DNA from: Candidatus Saccharimonadales bacterium
GTDB lineage: Bacteria > Patescibacteriota > Saccharimonadia > Saccharimonadales > SZUA-47
Assembly: GCA_038211855.1 (NCBI GenBank)
Contig: JBBQVE010000001.1
Span: 17,648-81,647, forward strand
Direction: 5' to 3'
DNA: 64,000 nucleotides
Below, piece after piece: positions 1 through 16,408 of this stretch. The first letter of the stretch is position 1, and each line of letters starts with the position of its first letter. The notes beneath the pieces were generated by a model. It worked only from the letters and a program-made list of their open reading frames with translations. It did not search any database and was not told the DNA's origin. The position numbers and the translations under genes were made by a program.

Positions 1-279
1 TCCTACGGCGCCCTCATCCTTAGTCTCGTGCCCATCTATATCATCTATATCGAATCAACAGAGAATCTGAAGTGGGATTACCGCTGGCTGATGACCCCGG
101 TCTTTTGTGTGCTTGTAGCAGGTTTTGCAATCTGTTACCTTGTCATTCGTGACAGCAATACTCATCATTTCGTGAAGCGTTATATCTTCTTCACCACCGT
201 GTTCCTTTCGCCGTTTGTAAAAATGACGCTTGCCCTAGATGGACAACGACGTTTGCAACCAGTAAAAATACACAGGTAA
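1..279 (+). CDS. 3' end of a membrane protein whose start lies upstream of the window (partial CDS)
   Basis: Frame +1 is open from nt 1 to the stop at 277-279; the sequence is hydrophobic (VFCVLVAGFAICYLVI). No start codon is required because the gene is truncated by the window edge. Confidence 0.3.
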   Translation, partial: SYGALILSLVPIYIIYIESTENLKWDYRWLMTPVFCVLVAGFAICYLVIRDSNTHHFVKRYIFFTTVFLSPFVKMTLALDGQRRLQPVKIHR

Positions 280-387
280 ACAAGTCGGTCACAAATGAAT
301 GTGAGAAGAGGATGCGCTGGTGTACGAAAAAGTTCTTACGTGGCCCTGCCTCGTTCCTTTTCTCTTCCTTAACGCTTCCTCTTGTCA

Positions 388-446
388 TCTTCATTTTGTA
401 AATACAATAGTTGCACTGATGAGTCCTCTCAGGACGAAAATGAAGA
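388..446 (+). ncRNA. Hammerhead ribozyme motif, type III topology (stem III open)
   Basis: The complete catalytic core is seen directly. The first conserved block is C416-U-G-A-U-G-A422 and the second is G436-A-A438. Stem II is GUCC 423-426 paired with GGAC 432-435, with loop UCUCA. Stem III is AAUGAAGA 439-446 paired with UCUUCAUU 388-395 (8 bp, A15.1-U16.1). H17 is U396. Stem I is UGUAA 397-401 paired with UUGCA 411-415, with a 9-nt loop. Predicted self-cleavage is 3' of U396. Confidence 0.6.
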
Positions 447-449
447 GAC

Positions 450-974
450 CTAGTTGGCGACTATATACTTAGTGGCTTCGAGCAGGCTTCCTGCGGTGTA
501 GTCGGCCTCCGGAACATCTTCTTTTTTGTTGCTGGTATGGACGAAGATGGTTTTGGTGCCAGCACGGATACCTGCCGTGACGTCAGATTGACGGTCGCCA
601 ATAAAGTATGTCGTTTCGAGATCAAAGTTGTGCTCATCGGCTGCGCGCAGAATCATACCTGGGTTTGGCTTGCGGTATTTGCTCATCGAGCCTTCGAAAT
701 CAGGCGAGTAGTAGGTTGCCACAACTTTTATACCGCTCGGTTTGAGCATTTCTTTGACCTTTTCGTGCAGAAATTCAAATTCGTCCTGTGTGATGCGGCC
801 TTCGCCGATGCCGGCTTGATTCGTGATAAAGATTACGCCGTAGCCGTTATCGGAGAGAAGCCGAAGAGCTTCAATGGTGTCTGGGAACAGTTTAATCTTG
901 TCGACGCTGTCGACGCGCATGTCGGGCGGATCAACCAATACAGTGCCATCACGGTCAAGGAGGACTATTTTCAT
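450..974 (-). CDS. HAD-IIIA family phosphatase (GmhB / histidinol-phosphatase-like)
   Basis: 174 aa, ATG start. HAD motif I is LLDRDGTV; the motif FITNQ..G and a C-terminal GDRQSD (motif IV-like) are present. It lies 40 nt downstream of the heliorhodopsin gene on the same strand. Confidence 0.65.
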   Translation of the reverse strand: MKIVLLDRDGTVLVDPPDMRVDSVDKIKLFPDTIEALRLLSDNGYGVIFITNQAGIGEGRITQDEFEFLHEKVKEMLKPSGIKVVATYYSPDFEGSMSKYRKPNPGMILRAADEHNFDLETTYFIGDRQSDVTAGIRAGTKTIFVHTSNKKEDVPEADYTAGSLLEATKYIVAN

Positions 975-1014: not shown

Positions 1015-1776
1015 TTATGGTCGCAGCGTGCCCGCAAAAACTTGCCACGCCAACAAGGATTTCGCGACAAGACTTAAGACGATGTAAACACGCTCGCCAT
1101 ACAGGTAATTTTTCCAGGGGCCGACCTTCTTATACTGCAGAACCATATTGAGCGCAAAGCAACTAAAGAATACGAAGATTGATACAAAAATCCAATAAAC
1201 AAAAGTTGGCGCGGCACTACCGTTATGGGCACTAAACCAGAAGTAAAAAGCGATAACCGCCCAAGGGATGATGCCAGCAAAAGTGCCGATGTTAAAGCTC
1301 AACCAGCTGGTTTGAGAAGTTGTCTGATTATGTACTTCCATCACGAGTCCCATAAGATTCATGAGAGCGGTCAGGCAGAAGATCATCGCGAGACTCACAA
1401 CATCATAAACACCTACTAATAGCGCGATAGCGACCATCATCGTGCTAGCCGAAAGTGCATATTCAAACCAACGGGTTTTATTGATGCCGAGCAGTAGATT
1501 TTTGTTATAGGTTTTATTGTAGATGGTTGCAATAAATAGGTGAGCGGCCGCGGACAGAAAAAAGAATGCGACGATAAGTGCGGGCAATGAGAGAGTAAAA
1601 AGTGTTTTGCTGGCCGGTAGTAACTTTTGTGTAGCGCTGTCGAAACGAAGATAGCTGCCGCTTATTGGAAGACGAAAGCTGCGACTCAGGGCCATAACTG
1701 CGAGTCCTTGTGCTGTGTGTAGTCCCGCCATAACGAAATTGAATTTTCTTAGGCCGCTCGTCGTAATTTTTTTCAT
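1015..1776 (-). CDS. Heliorhodopsin (7TM retinal protein, inverted topology family)
   Basis: 253 aa from the ATG at 1776; the ORF track begins at an in-frame TTG at 1782. From memory it aligns along its whole length to heliorhodopsin 48C12. NFVMAGLHTAQGLAVMALS..LPISGSYL corresponds to NFNRIAGVFHLLQMLAVLALS..LPMTGTYL. TRWFEYALSASTMMV corresponds to FRWVEYSLSSSVMIV. GIIPWAVIAFY corresponds to GIVPWIGLLIY. The C-terminus YKKVGPWKNYLYGERVYIVLSLVAKSLLAWQVFAGTL corresponds to YKGKGKWSNYLRGERAYIVLSLVAKSALAWQIFSGTL, including the Schiff-base lysine in SLVAKS. Confidence 0.8.
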   Translation of the reverse strand: MKKITTSGLRKFNFVMAGLHTAQGLAVMALSRSFRLPISGSYLRFDSATQKLLPASKTLFTLSLPALIVAFFFLSAAAHLFIATIYNKTYNKNLLLGINKTRWFEYALSASTMMVAIALLVGVYDVVSLAMIFCLTALMNLMGLVMEVHNQTTSQTSWLSFNIGTFAGIIPWAVIAFYFWFSAHNGSAAPTFVYWIFVSIFVFFSCFALNMVLQYKKVGPWKNYLYGERVYIVLSLVAKSLLAWQVFAGTLRP

Positions 1777-1842
1777 ATTCAAATAGTATCACAATCGACT
1801 TACGAGGGTCATGGAGCTTCAAATAATAAAGTATGCACATAC

Positions 1843-1874: not shown

Positions 1875-1951
1875 TGGTGATCCCGGCGGGATTCGAACCC
1901 GCGATCTCCTGGATGAGAACCAGGTGTCCAAGACCACTAGACGACGGGACC
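1875..1951 (-). tRNA. tRNA-Glu (anticodon CTC), CCA encoded
   Basis: The reverse complement is GGTCCCG-TC-GTC-TAGTGGTCTTG-GAC-A-CCTGG-TTCTCAT-CCAGG-AGATC-GCGGG-TTCGAAT-CCCGC-CGGGATC-A-CCA. It folds as a cloverleaf with a 7-bp acceptor stem, a Glu-type D-arm (3-bp D-stem), anticodon loop TT-CTC-AT and a T-loop TTCGAAT. Confidence 0.8.
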
Positions 1952-2692: not shown

Positions 2693-4237
2693 TTATCTCC
2701 TGTACATGCTATGGTTCTTAATCCAGCCGTGTGCTCCCCTCATGATACCATCTTGACCCTGTGCTTCAGCGCCATGTCGCGCTTCATCATACTGCTCGAG
2801 GGTAAACGTGAAGATGCTGCCTTCGCCTTCTTTGCTGTTGACCCAAATATTGCCACCATGGGCGTTGACGAGTGCTTTGCAGAGATACAAGCCAAGGCCG
2901 GTGCCCCCGATCTGAACACGACTACGGTGACTACGGTAGAATTTATCAAATAACTTTGGTACCACACTGGCGGGAATACCGAGGCCATTATCTTGAACGC
3001 TCGTTTCAACCATACCATCGCGGCCAATTTTACTGGTAATGGTAATCTGTTCGGACTTGCCGCCATACTTAATGGCATTATCAACGAGGTTATTGATGAT
3101 TTCATGGACGCTGATACGGTCGGCGGCGACCAGTGGAATCGATGGATCAATCTCAAGAACTATATGCTTGCCATGGACTTGGGCACGCAGCTCAAGGTCG
3201 GCTACGGCAGAGGTCAGGATCTCTTTGAGGTCTTCCTTGTGCAGCGTCAGCGTGAGCTGATTCTCACCGATGCGGGCCACATTCAGGATATTACTCACAA
3301 AGGCCGTCAGTTGCTGGGCGCTGGCGTGCATCTTATGCATAAAATCTTTCAATTCAGGCGCCAAACCTGGGCCAAGCTCGTCTTCAAAGACTTCTATATA
3401 ACCGCGCATAATGGTGAGCGGTGTGCGCAGTTCATGCACGGCCATCGCGACAAAACTAATTTCTTGATCATCAGCCGCATACGATTCGGTGTGATCGAAG
3501 AAAACGAGGACTGACTCAACCTCACCAGCGCCCTTGCTATAACTGGCCGCCATATCGAACTGCTTCGTCGGGTTGCCATCTGTATCTACCAAACGCACAC
3601 GGTTCCAGGTAGTGCCTGCCTTCACAACATTCTTCTGACAATCTGACAACCACGTCTCATAAGTGAGCTCGCTTGGAAAACTCATGTTTAGGATATCATT
3701 GATGTTTTTACCGATTGAGGCTTGTCGCTTTTCGGCATCGATACCCAGATACACCACCGCCGCATCATTCATATAGTGCAAATGTGAGGCACTATCGACG
3801 GTTAATACTGGCAACGGAGTGGCATTTAACATCTTTTCGCCGCCTATGACGGCCGCTTGCGGATGTGGCTCCTGTTCTTGACTATGACCCGCTTTGCTGG
3901 CCATTTCATATACTTGGAGGGCCAAAACAGATACCATCTCACGGCCAAGTTTTATATGTTCGATATCAGGAGCTGGTGTAGCAGAAGTCTCACGACTGAC
4001 GTGTAAGATGGCCTGACGCAGATTTTTGAGTGGTTCGAGGGCGTAGGATGTCGTGGCTGCGGACATAAAATATGCACAGACAAACCCAATCGTGATCGAG
4101 CCGACCGCTAACGGAATGTTTGGAACATGCAGATGTCTGCCTGCGAGCCACACGACGAGAGGAACGAGCGAGACAAGCATAAAAGCCATCCACAGTCGGC
4201 CAATGAGGGCTTTTTGGACGGCTTTTAAATGGTCCAT
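2693..4237 (-). CDS. Membrane sensor histidine kinase (HisKA + HATPase_c)
   Basis: 514 aa with an N-terminal TM segment. The H-box is AMAVHELRTPLTIMRGY. The N-box is NLVDNAIKYG, and a G-box DNGLGIP...GGTGLGL is present. Confidence 0.8.
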   Translation of the reverse strand: MDHLKAVQKALIGRLWMAFMLVSLVPLVVWLAGRHLHVPNIPLAVGSITIGFVCAYFMSAATTSYALEPLKNLRQAILHVSRETSATPAPDIEHIKLGREMVSVLALQVYEMASKAGHSQEQEPHPQAAVIGGEKMLNATPLPVLTVDSASHLHYMNDAAVVYLGIDAEKRQASIGKNINDILNMSFPSELTYETWLSDCQKNVVKAGTTWNRVRLVDTDGNPTKQFDMAASYSKGAGEVESVLVFFDHTESYAADDQEISFVAMAVHELRTPLTIMRGYIEVFEDELGPGLAPELKDFMHKMHASAQQLTAFVSNILNVARIGENQLTLTLHKEDLKEILTSAVADLELRAQVHGKHIVLEIDPSIPLVAADRISVHEIINNLVDNAIKYGGKSEQITITSKIGRDGMVETSVQDNGLGIPASVVPKLFDKFYRSHRSRVQIGGTGLGLYLCKALVNAHGGNIWVNSKEGEGSIFTFTLEQYDEARHGAEAQGQDGIMRGAHGWIKNHSMYRR

Positions 4238-5561: not shown

Positions 5562-7217
5562 ATGACAGATACAACGACTGAACGAATTGCTGCCTTGCTC
5601 AGCGAAGGTCTGACGCTGAGGTCGCGTGCGCAGATTGAAGCTACCTTCCCTGCCCGCTCGTTGCCGCCAGGCGCCGAAGTGATGCGTGTGCCGCCCAGTC
5701 CGACGGGTTTTGTACATATTGGTACGATTTATGCAGGTCTCGTGAATGAGCGGATTGCCCACCAAAGTGCCGGCGTCTTCATTTTACGCATCGAGGATAC
5801 AGATAAGAAACGCGAAGTTGCTGGTTCGGTTGCGCGGATCGTTGAAGCGTTTGATTATTTTGACCTACAGTATGACGAAGGCCCGATCCGTGAGGGTGCT
5901 TATGGGCCCTATTTTCAAAGTCAACGCGGTGATATATATATGGCCTACGCTCTTGAACTGCTCCGTTCTGGCCGCGCCTACCCCGACTTCGCTACACCTG
6001 AAGAATTGCAGGCCACTACGGCTGCCCAGCAAGCTGCCAAAGTACGACCTGGTACCTATGGAAAGTGGGCACTGTGGCGTGAAAAAACTGATGAAGAGGT
6101 CACTGCTGCGCTTGATGCGGGCACACCGTTCGTCTTACGCTTCAAATCCACAGGAAGCCATGAGAAGCGCATTACTTATGAAGACGTCTTCAAGGGCCGT
6201 ATGGAAGTGCCCGAAAACGACCTCGATGTGCCGCTGATAAAAAGTGATGGCACGCGTCTGCCAACCTACCATCTGGCGCATGTCGTTGACGACACGTTGA
6301 TGCGTGTCACCAAAGTCTTCCGCAGCGACGAATGGCTACCAAGCACGGCGCTCCACATTGAACTCTGCCAAGCCCTCGAGCTTACTCCTTTTACCTATGG
6401 CCACTTTGCGCCAATCAGTATTTTGGACAAAAACGGTGGCGGCAAACGCAAACTTAGCAAACGCAAAGACGACGAAGCCAATGTGGAGTTTTGGATAGCG
6501 GCAGGTTACCCCGTCGAAGGCGTCAAAGCCTATCTATTGGGCCTCGCTAACTCAACGTTTGAAGACTGGTACCGTTCCAATCCAAGTGTTTCTCTGTCTG
6601 AGTTCCCTGTTTCTTTAGAAAAGTTAGCTGCCAGCCGTGCTCCGCTCCTCGACATGGCCAAGCTACAGGACTACTGTAAGGACTACATCGCATCACTACC
6701 TCAAGACGAGTTCAACAAACGATTGATTGCTGCTCAGACTAATAAAGATTTCAAGCATGCCCTTGAGGTTAATGCCGATTACACGAATAAAGTGCTAGAA
6801 ATCGAACGTACCGGTGAAAAACCGCGCAAAGACCTAGCCAAGTGGGAAGATGCCTTCGACAATTACGCCTATTTTTACGATCAATTATTCACGAAGGATT
6901 TTGCTCCTCAGATTTTGGCGCAACTCGAAGATATTGACACGAAAACTGTTGCACATGCCTGTGCTGCTTTTTTGGAGTCTTATGACCCGGCTGATGAGTC
7001 GCAGATCTGGTTCGAAAAGCTCAAAGCGGCCGCCGAAAAATGCGGTTTCGCAACAGACAATAAAGCTTTCAAAGCCAATCCAGAAAAGTTTGTGGGCAAC
7101 GTCGCCGATTTTGCGCGAATTGTCAGAGTCAAGTTAACTGGTAAAAACCGCACGCCCGACCTCACCGCCATCATGCGTGTAATGGGAATCGACCGTATCA
7201 AAAACCGCTTGCAATAA
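5562..7217 (+). CDS. gltX: Glutamyl-tRNA synthetase (class I)
   Basis: 551 aa. The HIGH-type motif is PSPTGFVHIGT, RIEDTD is present, and the KMSKS-type motif is KLSKRK. Confidence 0.8.
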   Translation: MTDTTTERIAALLSEGLTLRSRAQIEATFPARSLPPGAEVMRVPPSPTGFVHIGTIYAGLVNERIAHQSAGVFILRIEDTDKKREVAGSVARIVEAFDYFDLQYDEGPIREGAYGPYFQSQRGDIYMAYALELLRSGRAYPDFATPEELQATTAAQQAAKVRPGTYGKWALWREKTDEEVTAALDAGTPFVLRFKSTGSHEKRITYEDVFKGRMEVPENDLDVPLIKSDGTRLPTYHLAHVVDDTLMRVTKVFRSDEWLPSTALHIELCQALELTPFTYGHFAPISILDKNGGGKRKLSKRKDDEANVEFWIAAGYPVEGVKAYLLGLANSTFEDWYRSNPSVSLSEFPVSLEKLAASRAPLLDMAKLQDYCKDYIASLPQDEFNKRLIAAQTNKDFKHALEVNADYTNKVLEIERTGEKPRKDLAKWEDAFDNYAYFYDQLFTKDFAPQILAQLEDIDTKTVAHACAAFLESYDPADESQIWFEKLKAAAEKCGFATDNKAFKANPEKFVGNVADFARIVRVKLTGKNRTPDLTAIMRVMGIDRIKNRLQ

Positions 7218-7236: not shown

Positions 7237-8301
7237 TTACAGGCTGGCGGCGATTCTGACAAGCTGATCGCTCGTCAGATCGGAGTTGCCCTCGATTTGA
7301 TACCACACTCCACCGTTGACCCAAGTAGCATTTGAGCCATCGTAGATATAAATAGTCCGTCCACGATCTTGATAGGTCTGATATGCTTTGCCACCGATGG
7401 CGACGAAGTTGCTCAGAAGCGTATCGCTGGTCCAGGTACTGGTCTGTTGGGAGAGTTTATAGTTGCGGCTCGCGTCACTGTTGGACTTGAAGCTGACAAC
7501 CACCTGCCCGGCGCTATATTGCACGGGACCTTGGAACGTAAAGCCAGATGGCGAGTATTCTGGCATTGTCGCTCCAAATCCGGCACGAGCAGAAGCAACT
7601 CGCATGGCCAGGTTCGGAACGTTCTGATAGGCATAAAAACCGCCAATCAATAGGCCGGCAAGCACTGTAGTAGAGATTGCTAAAGCCTTCGCGCTGATTC
7701 CTATCCTCTTCGCTATGCGCTTGTGCATTGGTTTCTTGGGATCATAAAACGGCTCATTGTGGCTTTGGGCAGCCTCAAGCGCACGATCCAGCAAATCAGC
7801 CGTCTTGGCTTTCTGGCTAGTAACTGCGCTGATAACTGGGACGATGGCCGGAGCTGGTCGGACTTCCAACGGTACGACTTTCTTAATAATTTGTGCAGGC
7901 ATTTGTGGTGCCCCAAACTTGTGGATCAGAGCACTCTTTTCTACCTGTTGGGCATGTTGTTCACGGCCGAGAGACGTGGCGGCGGTTCGCGGGGTGATAA
8001 TCGTTTTTGCTACTGGCTTACTGCTCGTAGCGGCAACGAGGATTGGTTTTGTAAGCGAAGCAGAAGACGGCTTTTTGACCACTGAGCGCATCAAAGTTTT
8101 GGTGCGTTGGACAGGCGTTGCTGGCAAGCCGCTGCCACCTCGAGCAACAGGGACAGAAGTCGAGTGCTTCGGTCGTTTCACAAAGCCGTCAACGACCATT
8201 TTTTGGGTATTTTTTGGTGTTGCATGTGTGCCAATCAAGGCGCCAGTGACAGCGTCGTAGCGCTGACCGTTGATTTCGATGAAGTTTTGCTGGTTGCCCA
8301 C
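7237..8301 (-). CDS. Hypothetical membrane-anchored protein (single TM, extracytoplasmic C-terminal domain)
   Basis: 354 aa. The TM helix is AISTTVLAGLLIGGFYAY. No family motifs were recognised. Confidence 0.35.
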   Translation of the reverse strand: MGNQQNFIEINGQRYDAVTGALIGTHATPKNTQKMVVDGFVKRPKHSTSVPVARGGSGLPATPVQRTKTLMRSVVKKPSSASLTKPILVAATSSKPVAKTIITPRTAATSLGREQHAQQVEKSALIHKFGAPQMPAQIIKKVVPLEVRPAPAIVPVISAVTSQKAKTADLLDRALEAAQSHNEPFYDPKKPMHKRIAKRIGISAKALAISTTVLAGLLIGGFYAYQNVPNLAMRVASARAGFGATMPEYSPSGFTFQGPVQYSAGQVVVSFKSNSDASRNYKLSQQTSTWTSDTLLSNFVAIGGKAYQTYQDRGRTIYIYDGSNATWVNGGVWYQIEGNSDLTSDQLVRIAASL

Positions 8302-13146: not shown

Positions 13147-13944
13147 TTAGTCGGCGAGCTCAATACTGATCGGACAGTGGTCAGACCCCATTGCCTCTGG
13201 GTGAATCGTGGCTGCTTTGAGGGAGTCTTTCAGCGAGTCGCTGATCATAAAGTAGTCAATCCGCCAGCCGACGTTGCGTTGACGTGCCCCGCCCCAGGCA
13301 GTCCACCACGTGTAAGCATCTTTTTCATCTGGATGTAGGGTTCGAAAAGTGTCCAAAAAACCGGTAGCGATCATTTTATCGAAACCTTCACGTTCTTCTG
13401 TCGTAAAACCGTGTTTACCGACGTTTTCGGCCGGTCGAGCAAGGTCGATTTCTTGGTGGGCGACATTAAAGTCACCGCAAAAAATCACTGGTGCGTCCTT
13501 TTCTAGTTCTTTTACGTGTTCAAGAAAAGCCGGATCCCAGATTTTGTGGCGCATACTCAGGCGTTCCAGCTTTTCCTTGCTGTTTGGGGTATACACGGTC
13601 ACCACCCAGAAGTCCTTAAATCGAGCGCTCAATACCCTGCCCTCGTCTGTTGTGGTACCAAATATATCCTTAAAATCATATTTTTTTTGGATAGCGGCTG
13701 AAAAGCCATTCCGTACTTCTAATGGCTCTATTCTCGAGAAAATCGCGGTACCAGAATAACCTTTCTTCTGTGCTGAGTGCCAGTATTCGTGGTACCCCGG
13801 CAGAACAACAGGTGACTGCTCCGGCTGGGCCTTCGTCTCCTGCAAGCATAAGATATCTGGTAGTTCCCGCTCCACAAATTCCTGAAATAGCCCTTTGTTC
13901 CACACAGCGCGGATACCGTTGACGTTCCACGAATAAATCTTCAT
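13147..13944 (-). CDS. xth: Exodeoxyribonuclease III / AP endonuclease
   Basis: 265 aa with MKIYSWNVNGIRA...LCLQETK...GDFNV...DHCP, which are the EEP-family catalytic motifs. Confidence 0.85.
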   Translation of the reverse strand: MKIYSWNVNGIRAVWNKGLFQEFVERELPDILCLQETKAQPEQSPVVLPGYHEYWHSAQKKGYSGTAIFSRIEPLEVRNGFSAAIQKKYDFKDIFGTTTDEGRVLSARFKDFWVVTVYTPNSKEKLERLSMRHKIWDPAFLEHVKELEKDAPVIFCGDFNVAHQEIDLARPAENVGKHGFTTEEREGFDKMIATGFLDTFRTLHPDEKDAYTWWTAWGGARQRNVGWRIDYFMISDSLKDSLKAATIHPEAMGSDHCPISIELAD

Positions 13945-14267
13945 AAGATAATTGTATCATTTGACATTACCTTTCGCCGTTTACGGCTCGTCAGCACGAC
14001 TTTCACATTCGTGGAGGTAATAGGAGCAGAGATGAGGAATTGGATTTTTTGGTGCTGGGGTTAGCCGGCAAGTAAAAATGGTCCAGACTCATGTCTGCTC
14101 ACCTAGGACGATCCCAGGATTTAACGATTGCTCGCTCCACGAAAAGTTGGACCCTTCGCTTCTTTGCTAGCTTACAGTAAGACATCGTTCGTGCCTTATT
14201 CAATCTTGATATCCTCGAAAGGAAATCAGCCCGCCTGTGAATTCAGGTGTTGGGGGGGATTCGTGCG

Positions 14268-14924
14268 TTATCCGCCCGTGGTCGTCGATGTGACGTTTTG
14301 AGCAGCTGCAGCTTCTGCTTTGCGGTTGGCATCGCGCTCGGCAATTGTTTCACCAACAGATGAAGGCTTGTCAGTGGACGCATTGAACTGCGGCACATTG
14401 AAGATTGTCATCGGTGCATCTTGGTAGAGGGGCGACATCAGCTCAGGAACAAAGACGTAAACGTCTTCGGTAGTGAAGAAGAAGTAACCTTTCTCGTTTT
14501 CGCCGTAGCTGCCGTCGTCCGTTGGACTATGAACCACTACCGGCTGGCACCCATGATTGTGCTTACACGTCCAGTAAACCTGATCGGTAGGTGTCATCTG
14601 GGAGTTGGTGGAGCTGATCTTGCCCTTAATGGTGTAGTAGCCAATTGGCTCTTTCACCCCAGGGTTGAAGATGTAGGCATAGCCGAGCTTGTCAGGGTTA
14701 TTGAACCTGAGCAGCTTTTCACGCTGTTGCTCCAATTCCAGGAAGGTGTTCATCTGTGCCAGCGGGTACAAGTGCTGGGAGTTCACCTTATCCATGTAAC
14801 CGTTGACGACATCTTGACCAGCTGTCTGAGTCTTGCCGTCAGCTCCTGAGGCACCACTACTGCATGCTGCAGCAGTGAGGACGCAGGCCAAAACAAAACC
14901 GAGCATTCTGATAGGGTTCTTCAT
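14268..14924 (-). CDS. Predicted lipoprotein, hypothetical
   Basis: The start was chosen at the ATG at 14924 (MKNPIRMLGFVLACVLTAAACSSG) because AAGGAGAGAC lies immediately upstream. A signal peptide with a lipobox-like AAAC is present. The track's 61-aa N-terminal extension lacks an RBS. Confidence 0.45.
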   Translation of the reverse strand: MKNPIRMLGFVLACVLTAAACSSGASGADGKTQTAGQDVVNGYMDKVNSQHLYPLAQMNTFLELEQQREKLLRFNNPDKLGYAYIFNPGVKEPIGYYTIKGKISSTNSQMTPTDQVYWTCKHNHGCQPVVVHSPTDDGSYGENEKGYFFFTTEDVYVFVPELMSPLYQDAPMTIFNVPQFNASTDKPSSVGETIAERDANRKAEAAAAQNVTSTTTGG

Positions 14925-14973
14925 GTCTCTCCTTGTGTAGGAATTCTGGTTGTACTTCTGTACTTCTAGTTGG

Positions 14974-15447
14974 CTAGGCGTTGGGCTTGCAGTCGGTTTT
15001 TGGATCCTGCTGGTTGATCTGCTGTGGCAGGTCAGGCGTTCTCCAGTCTTGTGCAAGCACTTTGTGCCCATTGGCATCGTATTCGGTGACGGCCGATACG
15101 CACACATTCTCTACTCCTATCAGGTTCTGCTGGTCGATGGTCGTGTCTTTGCCGGCCTTAGTGTCTGTATCGATTGCCTGTTGGGCGATACCGATCTTTA
15201 GATCTAGTGCCTTGATGGCGGCGAAACGATCTTCGAAAGCCTGCTGCTGTTCAGTACGGTTCTGATTGCTGTTGTTCTGGATAATCTGATCGCCACGACC
15301 TTTCGGGCCGCTGAGCAGAACCTTGAGTCCCCAACCGCCAAGCGAAAGAACGATCGTTGCCAGAATGGCAATGATCACCCACTTCTTGGTAGTATTGACG
15401 ACATCGCGGTCGCTCATGTTGAAGTTGCCCTCATTGTCGTATTTCAC
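14974..15447 (-). CDS. Hypothetical membrane-anchored protein
   Basis: 157 aa. A GTG start at 15447 is preceded by AAGGAG with 7-nt spacing. It has one TM helix (WVIIAILATIVLSLGGWGL) and a Q/N-rich extracytoplasmic tail. Confidence 0.4.
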   Translation of the reverse strand: MKYDNEGNFNMSDRDVVNTTKKWVIIAILATIVLSLGGWGLKVLLSGPKGRGDQIIQNNSNQNRTEQQQAFEDRFAAIKALDLKIGIAQQAIDTDTKAGKDTTIDQQNLIGVENVCVSAVTEYDANGHKVLAQDWRTPDLPQQINQQDPKTDCKPNA

Positions 15448-15506
15448 TAGTGTCTCCTTGATAGGATGTCACCTGCAGATGCAGTACGTCGAGTAAAAGC
15501 TGATTT

Positions 15507-15559
15507 GCTTAGACCGATAAAAACAAACAAATAGTTTATTTACTTATGCCGGTCTAAGC
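15507..15559. repeat. Intergenic palindromic element (10-bp perfect inverted repeat GCTTAGACCG / CGGTCTAAGC around a 33-nt AT-rich spacer)
   Basis: The arms are at 15507-15516 and 15550-15559. The element sits in a 292-nt AT-rich intergenic region upstream of the gene starting at 15447. No adjacent U-tract is present, so it is more likely an operator than a terminator. Confidence 0.4.
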
Positions 15560-15739
15560 GTTTCTATAGCACGAATTGTCAATTTGCATCCTTCACGCGA
15601 TTTGCATCGGCCCAAAGAACGTATATAATTATACAACATAGTTTACAATTAAACAATAGTATGTCTTACTGATTTTATTGACAAAAAGGAGTATAATAGA
15701 AGATAGTAGCTAAAATAGCAAACATAGTAATAAACAGAC

Positions 15740-16408
15740 TTAATGACGATTCGACTGTTTCATTTTAACCGGCATAAAGCCAAATCTGCGCCGCGGGTCG
15801 ACTCCGACAAATCCTCTGACTATCGTATTATTAGAAAGATTAGTCGGGCTGGTATGAGTGGTATGTCTGCTCGGCATTTCAAGCGTAATAGCTTTATCTG
15901 GCAAAGTTATAAATTTCACTCCAGGAAGTAACTTGAGTACTGGCTCGTAGCCATGCTTGTTCATCAGCAATTCGAGTATGGACGAACTTTCAGACGTTTC
16001 GTGTTCCTTTAGCCCAAGTTCACTCACCGCGGCGTTGAGTTCAATTGGAGTGTAGGAGCCATGTACGACATCTGTATTTAAACCCCAGCTTGTTGCCAGC
16101 AGATACATGTCGTCATGGTGCCATCGATAGTGACCACGGTCACCGGGCTTTAAACGAGCACCCGTTGCATAGACTTGACGTGGCATAGTTACCTGCAAAC
16201 CGGCTTCCTGTGCGCATTCCAACATATACTTTCCAATGTCGTGATACGGTCGCCAATCAAGTAATCGCGGATGGTTATTGAAGTCGTTTTTTGGGGCGGC
16301 CTCAATAAGTTCATCTGGCACCTGACCAATAATGAACGGCTCCGGAAGTTTGATCGCCTCAGACAAGGCCTCGGTAGACATAAAGATATAGTATCGCATA
16401 AAAAGCAT
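15740..16408 (-). CDS. Hypothetical protein, possibly PhyH-like 2OG-Fe(II) oxygenase (WHxD motif)
   Basis: 222 aa. The motif RWHHDDMYL resembles the pWHqD iron-binding motif of the phytanoyl-CoA dioxygenase family. This is a weak call. Confidence 0.3.
   Translation of the reverse strand: MLFMRYYIFMSTEALSEAIKLPEPFIIGQVPDELIEAAPKNDFNNHPRLLDWRPYHDIGKYMLECAQEAGLQVTMPRQVYATGARLKPGDRGHYRWHHDDMYLLATSWGLNTDVVHGSYTPIELNAAVSELGLKEHETSESSSILELLMNKHGYEPVLKLLPGVKFITLPDKAITLEMPSRHTTHTSPTNLSNNTIVRGFVGVDPRRRFGFMPVKMKQSNRH

Follow-up and report, generated by a model that had tools for sequence, protein, structure and literature searches.

Near its left end the window, by which we mean the whole 64-kb stretch of DNA that was analysed, carries a 59-nt element in the spacer between a small plus-strand ORF and the convergent gene of a HAD phosphatase. 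A second element of the same architecture is found on the minus strand, 13.5 kb from the first, and ends 20 nt upstream of the start codon of xth at 13944 (Table 1). The plus-strand gene upstream of the first element (copy 1) encodes a 135-aa membrane-like protein with several hydrophobic stretches (ORF135); it is located at 1065-1472 on the minus strand of the Logan contig L057, which extends the window 2185 nt leftward, and corresponds to the window up to 279 on the plus strand. The distances given by the first-pass annotation proved to be accurate, as the stop codon of this ORF (277-279) is located 108 nt upstream of copy 1 and the stop codon of the HAD phosphatase gene lies at 450-452. The operon on the other side had been described there as a rhodopsin operon; the gene in question is, more specifically, a heliorhodopsin gene. 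Further neighbours of copy 1 are genes for a response regulator and a histidine kinase, the surroundings of the second element (copy 2) also contain further small ORFs and a divergent gene of the amino-acid-kinase family, and a sortase gene is found among the neighbours of the two elements as well.

Table 1. Coordinates of the features at the two loci (window numbering; H17, cleavage position)
Feature	Position	Strand	Remarks
Insert 1 (strain-specific), right part	1-474	+	holds ORF135 (ends 279) and copy 1; absent from closest relative
Long imperfect hairpin directly upstream of copy 1	293-396	+	MFE -34.7 kcal/mol; z = -5.08 vs shuffles
Hammerhead copy 1, type III	388-446	+	read directly; own descriptor match
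Copy 1 stem III	388-395 UCUUCAUU / 439-446 AAUGAAGA		8 Watson-Crick pairs, including U395-A439 (16.1-15.1)
Copy 1 cleavage position	U396		position 17; predicted cut after U396
Copy 1 stem I	397-401 UGUAA / 411-415 UUGCA		5 bp, one G-U wobble (U399-G413)
Copy 1 loop 1	402-410 AUACAAUAG		9 nt
Copy 1 core	CUGAUGA 416-422; GAA 436-438
Copy 1 stem II	423-426 GUCC / 432-435 GGAC		4 bp, with G10.1-C11.1
Copy 1 loop 2	427-431
HAD phosphatase	450-974	-	convergent neighbour of copy 1
Heliorhodopsin	1015-1782	-	Pfam PF18761, E = 6.7e-93; directly upstream of HAD phosphatase
tRNA-Glu	1875-1951		next to heliorhodopsin
xth, exodeoxyribonuclease III	13147-13944	-	starts 20 nt after copy 2
Insert 2 (strain-specific)	13946-16370	-	2.4 kb, between amino-acid-kinase-family gene and xth
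Hammerhead copy 2, type III	13965-14022	-	descriptor scan; also from copy-1-only covariance model
Copy 2 stem III	14022-14015 / 13972-13965	-	8 bp, including A13972-U14015 (15.1-16.1)
Copy 2 cleavage position	C14014 (H17)	-	predicted cut after C14014
Copy 2 stem I	14013-14009 / 13999-13995	-	5 bp
Copy 2 loop 1	14008-14000 AUGUGAAAG	-	9 nt
Copy 2 core	CUGACGA 13994-13988; GAA 13975-13973	-
Copy 2 stem II	13987-13984 / 13979-13976	-	4 bp; loop 2 UAAA
Long imperfect hairpin ending one base before copy 2	14024-14100	-	MFE -24.6 kcal/mol; z = -3.94 vs shuffles
218-aa lipoprotein-like ORF, insert 2	14268-14924	-	lipoprotein-type signal (…LTAAAC); stops 245 nt before copy 2
157-aa ORF, insert 2	14974-15447	-
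222-aa ORF, insert 2	15740-16408	-	start just beyond mapped boundary

Copy 1 had been annotated as a type III hammerhead ribozyme, and reading its sequence, UCUUCAUU-U-UGUAA-AUACAAUAG-UUGCA-CUGAUGA-GUCC-UCUCA-GGAC-GAA-AAUGAAGA, we recovered the proposed coordinates, core and three helices base for base. The nucleotide at the H17 cleavage position is U396, as had been claimed, and is not a G. For stem I the annotated lengths (5 bp and a loop of 9 nt) were right, but the G-U wobble between U399 and G413 had gone unmentioned. Two helices could be longer than listed: a fifth pair, U427-A431, is possible in stem II, and stem III may continue through G384-C449, U385-A448 and C386-G447 past a bulged A387. 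The same sequence, base-identical, was observed in an independent Logan assembly (L057, run SRR19962015). Copy 2, which is likewise base-identical in a separate Logan assembly of this run (contig L272), reads on the minus strand UAUUACCU-C-CACGA-AUGUGAAAG-UCGUG-CUGACGA-GCCG-UAAA-CGGC-GAA-AGGUAAUG. Relative to the nearest-neighbour MFE the hammerhead fold costs 3.3 kcal/mol in copy 1 and 2.1 kcal/mol in copy 2; gaps of this size (2-3.3 kcal/mol) are nothing unusual where a fold relies on tertiary contacts.

Copy 2 was identified in two ways. We scanned both strands of the window with our own type III descriptor (CUGANGA, a stem II hairpin, GAAA, a stem I hairpin, any nucleotide except G at H17 and a stem III closing on the A15.1-U16.1 pair) and found two sites, while descriptors for types I and II gave no match in the window. 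In addition, a covariance model was built from copy 1 alone with the hammerhead structure imposed, and the whole window was searched with filters switched off: the best match other than copy 1 itself was copy 2, with 34.7 bits and an E-value of ~4e-6 in the 64-kb window, and the next non-self matches had E-values of 0.04 or more. With a covariance model of both copies, copy 1 scores 77.7 bits. Both copies show the order typical of type III, that is the 5' strand of stem III, H17, the stem I hairpin, the core, the stem II hairpin, GAA and the 3' strand of stem III; both contain the C3 U4 G5 A6 N7 G8 A9 strand between stems I and II as well as G12 A13 A14 between stems II and III together with the A15.1-U16.1 pair. 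They further share a stem I of 5 bp closed by A-U with a 9-nt loop 1 of the form AU.....AG, a stem II of 4 bp with G10.1-C11.1 and a loop 2 of the form U..A, and a stem III of 8 bp. The stem sequences themselves are almost wholly different. In the model-guided alignment of these two sequences (n = 2) all 17 pairs are kept in both copies, nine by compensatory double changes and two by one-sided changes. As a control of the register we slid the 3' partners by 1-3 columns, which left 0-1 such pairs and 28-54% pairing. An invariant core combined with helices that have changed and are still paired is what a selected hammerhead fold predicts, so that this pattern supports a hammerhead despite the small number of sequences. 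The type III identification made from copy 1 therefore holds with regard to core, helices and topology, and is strengthened by the second copy, found with the copy-1 model, and by the covariation. By all criteria that can be defined on a sequence the element is a hammerhead of type III topology, and we regard 388-446 as very probably real as a self-cleaving ribozyme.

According to the NUH rule, a U at position 17 in a UUU triplet is allowed but belongs to the slower cleavage triplets. Copy 1 has U17 in exactly such a triplet and copy 2 carries the favourable triplet CUC. For fast cleavage at physiological Mg2+ a hammerhead requires a tertiary contact between the loops of stems I and II. In natural hammerheads the tertiary motif of the loops is UNmYN (loop 1) with RNnA (loop 2), and a conserved reverse-Hoogsteen contact joins the U region on the 5' side of loop 1 to the A that ends loop 2 (Dufour et al. 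2009, PMC2632901). Judged by eye, the two copies fit this motif in part: each has a U towards the 5' side of loop 1 and an A as the last base of loop 2. Loop 1 of copy 1 can be read as U-ACAA-U-A (UN4YN) if the flanking A and G form a non-canonical closing pair; by contrast, the penultimate position of loop 1 in copy 2 is an A and not a pyrimidine, and loop 2 of both copies starts with U instead of a purine. No Watson-Crick pseudoknot between loops 1 and 2 was evident on reading the loops of either copy.

Each copy is preceded by a long imperfect hairpin. The hairpin upstream of copy 1 reaches into the ribozyme, as its outer 7 bp pair 293-299 (AAAUGAA) with 390-396, that is, with the 5' strand of stem III plus U17, and because of this complementarity it competes with stem III in the uncleaved RNA. 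It dominates the thermodynamic fold of 280-452. In the predicted 5' cleavage product of copy 1 the stem III strand is paired with P = 0.85, a value reached by 0.5% of the controls with shuffled upstream sequence. The inner part of the hairpin is not exceptional when compared with genomic 90-nt windows (top 3.7% of GC-matched windows). On these folding calculations the hairpin could either slow cleavage or lock the product into a closed 3' hairpin, and together with U17 it may make copy 1 a slow cleaver. For the hairpin before copy 2 we obtained z-values of -3.9 to -4.6 against shuffles and a position at the 11.8th percentile of GC-matched genomic windows; neither a re-pairing of the tail after cleavage nor a competing pairing was significant against the controls for this copy, and the evidence for a role of the hairpin is weak. 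When searched in E-value mode, Rfam assigned 293-397 on the plus strand to the plant microRNA precursor MIR1507 (23.7 bits) and 388-448 to mir-8364 (24.1 bits). We discarded both as family assignments, as the matches reflect the shape of a long hairpin only. An automatic alignment and consensus fold of the regions comprising hairpin and hammerhead was mis-aligned and uninformative.

We then compared both loci with related genomes, in which the names given to the proteins indicate Saccharibacteria/Saccharimonadales. The closest relative, a contig reached through protein homologues (SRR22742752_14072), is syntenic over 25 kb, with the HAD phosphatase being 81% and xth 90% identical. Neither hammerhead is found in this contig at either locus or elsewhere in the fetched DNA. 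Instead, its HAD gene is followed after 55 bp by the gene of a PAS histidine kinase, at the place where ~830 bp are inserted in the organism of the window. This first insert spans L057 870-1700 as a whole and continues ~356 nt past the left end of the window. Upstream of xth the closest relative has an unrelated sequence of 707 bp, relatives with an xth of 82% identity have 37 bp, and the organism of the window has insert 2. By BLAST the homology breakpoints lie at about window position 474 for the first insert and at 13945/16371 for the second, and copy 2 lies at the xth-proximal end of insert 2. Each copy is thus situated inside strain-specific DNA, near one end of an insert, and follows in the same orientation a small and poorly conserved ORF, at a distance of 108 nt for copy 1 and 245 nt for copy 2. 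For ORF135 we found no homologue other than itself among 5.8 billion proteins, and hence no further hammerhead cassettes by that route; it may be an ORFan gene or no gene at all. The 218-aa lipoprotein-like ORF has no match in Pfam, NCBIfam or PHROG, and 286 distant relatives with at most 45% identity were found among 1.84 billion representatives, so that the family looks like one of uncharacterised, fast-evolving secreted or lipid-anchored proteins. No integrase, prophage or other phage gene is present in the annotated neighbourhood of either copy, and the sole match of the inserts to phage records has a length of 47 nt (E = 5e-3) and is not meaningful. Around the copies we also observed no signature of a repeat or mobile element: there is no extended similarity between them beyond the 59 nt, there are no long repeats, and no attC-like core sites were seen by eye.

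Two further observations concern the genes at these loci. In the closest relative (contig L059) a heliorhodopsin gene was not called, and only an ORF of 70 aa lies between the response regulator and the HAD gene; judging from this comparison, heliorhodopsin may be another strain-specific gain or loss, in this case one without a hammerhead. Between copy 2 and the ATG of xth, the sequence TGATACAAT (13951-13959, minus strand) looks by eye like an extended -10 element whose end lies 7 nt ahead of the start codon, and xth might accordingly be transcribed from a promoter of its own into a leaderless mRNA; an equivalent spacing was not seen in the relative with the 90% identical xth (L140).

The search for further members was extended to more distant relatives. 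No hammerhead was found at either locus or in the fetched DNA of the loci L141-150, in which xth is 82% identical, or of three contigs with an xth of 75-78% identity, and the type III descriptor gave no match in 80 metagenome loci (727 kb) with an xth identity of 57-66%. A relaxed descriptor allowing mismatches returned three poor candidates only in 828 kb of related loci, and the two-copy covariance model detected no further copy in the related Saccharibacteria loci (~850 kb in all). A protein search with the HAD phosphatase among genome contigs yielded only an unrelated match in Algoriphagus with 29% identity. As far as these sequences reach, the support from conservation comes from two paralogues in one genome.

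Both copies could be hammerheads by descent that arrived with horizontally acquired DNA, copy 1 no longer cleaving efficiently and having no present role in the cell. This would agree with the location of both copies in strain-specific inserts absent from the closest relatives, with the failure to find other copies in relatives, and, for copy 1, with U17, the thermodynamically favoured competing hairpin and an adjoining ORFan that is maybe no real gene. However, every invariant nucleotide and all base pairs were kept while most stem positions diverged, with compensatory changes at more than half of the pairs, as expected under continued selection, and copy 2 combines a favourable triplet with the lack of a significant competing pairing. 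We consider a relic or weakly active ribozyme unlikely on balance.

A different explanation would be that for the convergent genes the inverted repeats serve, perhaps in either direction, as a hairpin terminator or an element of RNA stability, with the match to the core being incidental. The location of copy 1 in a convergent spacer, abutting the HAD stop codon, would suit such a function, as would the strong inverted repeats of stem III and the upstream hairpin, and the reverse strand reaches 19 bits with the copy-1 model by means of stem III alone. A scan for intrinsic terminators, which consist of a G+C-rich hairpin with a U-run behind it, nevertheless returned nothing at 380-450 or 13960-14030, and no T-run follows stem III of copy 1, or the hairpins in general, on either strand. 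Moreover, copy 2 shows the same architecture between co-directional genes, where a terminator working in both directions would be pointless, and a hairpin function leaves the 11 invariant core bases in both copies unexplained. A purely structural spacer or terminator is very improbable in view of these data.

For better evaluation of the descriptor matches we analysed 300 dinucleotide-preserving shuffles of the window. On average 0.023 sites per window were expected when stems of at least 3/3/3 bp were required, compared to the two sites observed, and no site at all occurred at minimum stems of 4/4/4 or 5/4/6; the first-pass judgement that a chance occurrence is very unlikely is borne out by these numbers. 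The core pattern alone is not diagnostic, as can be seen from a third core-like string, CUGAUGAG…CGAAA at 6991-7017 on the plus strand, which lies inside a coding region (5562-7217), has no stem II and was rejected as a chance match. The check with the Rfam model RF00008 that had been proposed for copy 1 did not give a significant result: with Hammerhead_3 copy 1 obtains 18.0 bits where the gathering score is 48.5 (E = 0.32, search of 351 nt), in a local match restricted to the core and stem II. For copy 2 the score is 17.3 bits, likewise below the gathering score, in an alignment that leaves stem III unpaired and mis-threads stem I. At gathering thresholds two tRNAs were the only Rfam matches in the whole window. 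Neither at these thresholds nor in E-value mode did the window, the two loci or L057 yield a significant hammerhead, twister, pistol, hatchet or other ribozyme; across the copies the E-values for hammerheads were 0.16-0.32 even in tiny search spaces, and with the hammerhead models of clan CL00010 neither copy reaches a curated threshold. We interpret the low scores as a limit of the models that does not speak against the motif: a 9-nt loop 1 on a 5-bp stem I would not be accommodated by them, an explanation of our own that is seen directly for copy 2 only. Compared with the viroid, satellite and plant sequences behind RF00008, the copies are alike in the type III topology, in which stem III is open and the other two stems are capped, and in the core, G10.1-C11.1 and the short stem II with a loop of 4-5 nt. 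They differ in the 9-nt loop 1 (AU.....AG) on a 5-bp stem I and in the long stem III of 8 bp, and the element is a single copy in chromosomal DNA and not part of a rolling-circle replicon. That the sites are chance matches to a permissive motif, as the sub-threshold Rfam scores and the evidently accidental string at 6991-7017 might suggest, is hardly credible against the shuffles, two sites of matching architecture, and ~850 kb of related loci containing no perfect match and three weak candidates only when mismatches are allowed.

Taken together, our findings suggest with a probability of roughly 78% that the 59-nt element is a true self-cleaving ribozyme of the type III hammerhead class with at least one paralogue in the same Saccharibacteria-like CPR chromosome, and that the copies would process the transcripts of the inserts in cis. 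The motif, its non-random occurrence, the covariation and the context are observed in the DNA itself, and from them we infer transcription through the motif, cleavage, and effects on RNA ends and stability. In such a course of events, transcription of the insert ORF would run through the motif, and the RNA would adopt the three-way junction and cleave its own backbone behind U396 in copy 1 or C14014 in copy 2; the upstream mRNA would then end in a 2',3'-cyclic phosphate, and the downstream piece would begin with a 5'-OH. In copy 1 the ORF135 transcript would thereby stop 54 nt short of the convergent HAD gene, before it could run antisense into the HAD and heliorhodopsin genes, and the freed strand of stem III could fold back on 293-299 to complete a long hairpin at the 3' terminus. 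In copy 2 the mRNA of the lipoprotein would be separated from that of xth downstream. Cleavage in cis of the insert transcript is the most likely role, and it would bring about 3'-end formation or separation from the neighbouring genes. It had been proposed for copy 1 that cleavage sets the 3' end of the plus-strand transcript, before an antisense run into the HAD and rhodopsin genes; this is plausible and fits published ideas on bacterial hammerheads (PMC3088659, PMC6765202). One could go further and regard hammerhead plus upstream long hairpin as a portable 3'-end module that accompanies cassettes of small ORFans or surface proteins in CPR genomes, cuts the transcript, leaves a protective hairpin cap and insulates the neighbours in place of an intrinsic terminator, the hairpin of copy 1 acting in addition as a switch that makes cleavage irreversible. 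Since the hairpins are unremarkable against genomic 90-nt windows and the re-pairing of the tail is significant only for copy 1, we keep such a shared module as a speculative reading of low probability.

A self-cleaving hammerhead at these two sites would belong to a class that is already known and common in bacteria, so that the copies of the window are not a new kind of element and what is known of the class itself is unchanged by them. The biological role of hammerheads in bacteria is regarded as largely elusive (PMC6765202). Proposals include the processing of mRNAs or polycistronic RNAs (PMC3088659, PMC6765202), and, for bacterial hammerheads and twisters alike, the formation of mRNA 3' ends and the separation of transcripts, which are proposed and unproven (PMC6765202). 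With the bacterial genomic hammerheads of types I, II and III (De la Pena and Garcia-Robles 2010; Perreault et al. 2011, PMC3088659; Jimenez et al. 2011) the copies share the catalytic core and the three-way junction. They are also alike in their intergenic location, in the occurrence of several copies per genome and in adjoining small non-conserved ORFs, which bacterial hammerheads are reported to flank (PMC6155905). In contrast to many members of this class, the copies of the window show no association with a prophage or integrase, a feature that is frequent in the class and not defining; they differ further in having no apparent pseudoknot between loops 1 and 2 and in their host, a Saccharibacteria-like CPR bacterium. 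A full-text search found no paper mentioning both hammerhead ribozymes and Saccharibacteria. A functional analogy, and no more than that, exists to the glmS ribozyme and to engineered ribozyme insulators, where cleavage in cis within an mRNA leader or trailer likewise produces a 5'-OH and a 2',3'-cyclic phosphate. Such ends alter the fate of the flanking mRNA pieces (PMC6765202). The fold in the window is unrelated to these systems and nothing suggests a dependence on a ligand.

The two copies would place the hammerhead class in a small, reduced genome of a Saccharibacteria-like CPR bacterium. Their setting is simple and has no link to phages, each copy lying at the end of a recently gained small-ORF insert beside housekeeping genes, and together they provide a clean natural test pair, with one copy in a 3'-UTR facing a convergent gene and the other between co-directional genes, 20 nt from a start codon. 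As the curated Rfam models miss the subfamily of the window, such ribozymes are probably under-counted in the genomes of uncultivated bacteria.

Pattern scans of IMG/VR for the signature of loop 1 and core returned phage type II hammerheads and chance matches, and no member of the subfamily of the window. Many phage type II hammerheads are present in the IMG/VR loci that were retrieved (L001-L056), where the type I and II descriptors match 54 sites; one contig (L017) contains three type II hammerheads, at 3156-3194, 3452-3490 and 8080-8118. A nearly invariant hammerhead-like site is common to ~15 viral contigs of 100-220 kb (L003, L006, L007 and about a dozen others), which mostly stem from metagenome 3300045988. 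Another IMG/VR contig (L151) carries at 3953-4003 on the minus strand a clean type III hammerhead of a different subfamily, which scores only 27 bits with the model of the window copies; its stem I comprises 7 bp capped by GUGU, and its stem II (GCUC/GAGC) is closed by the loop AAAA.
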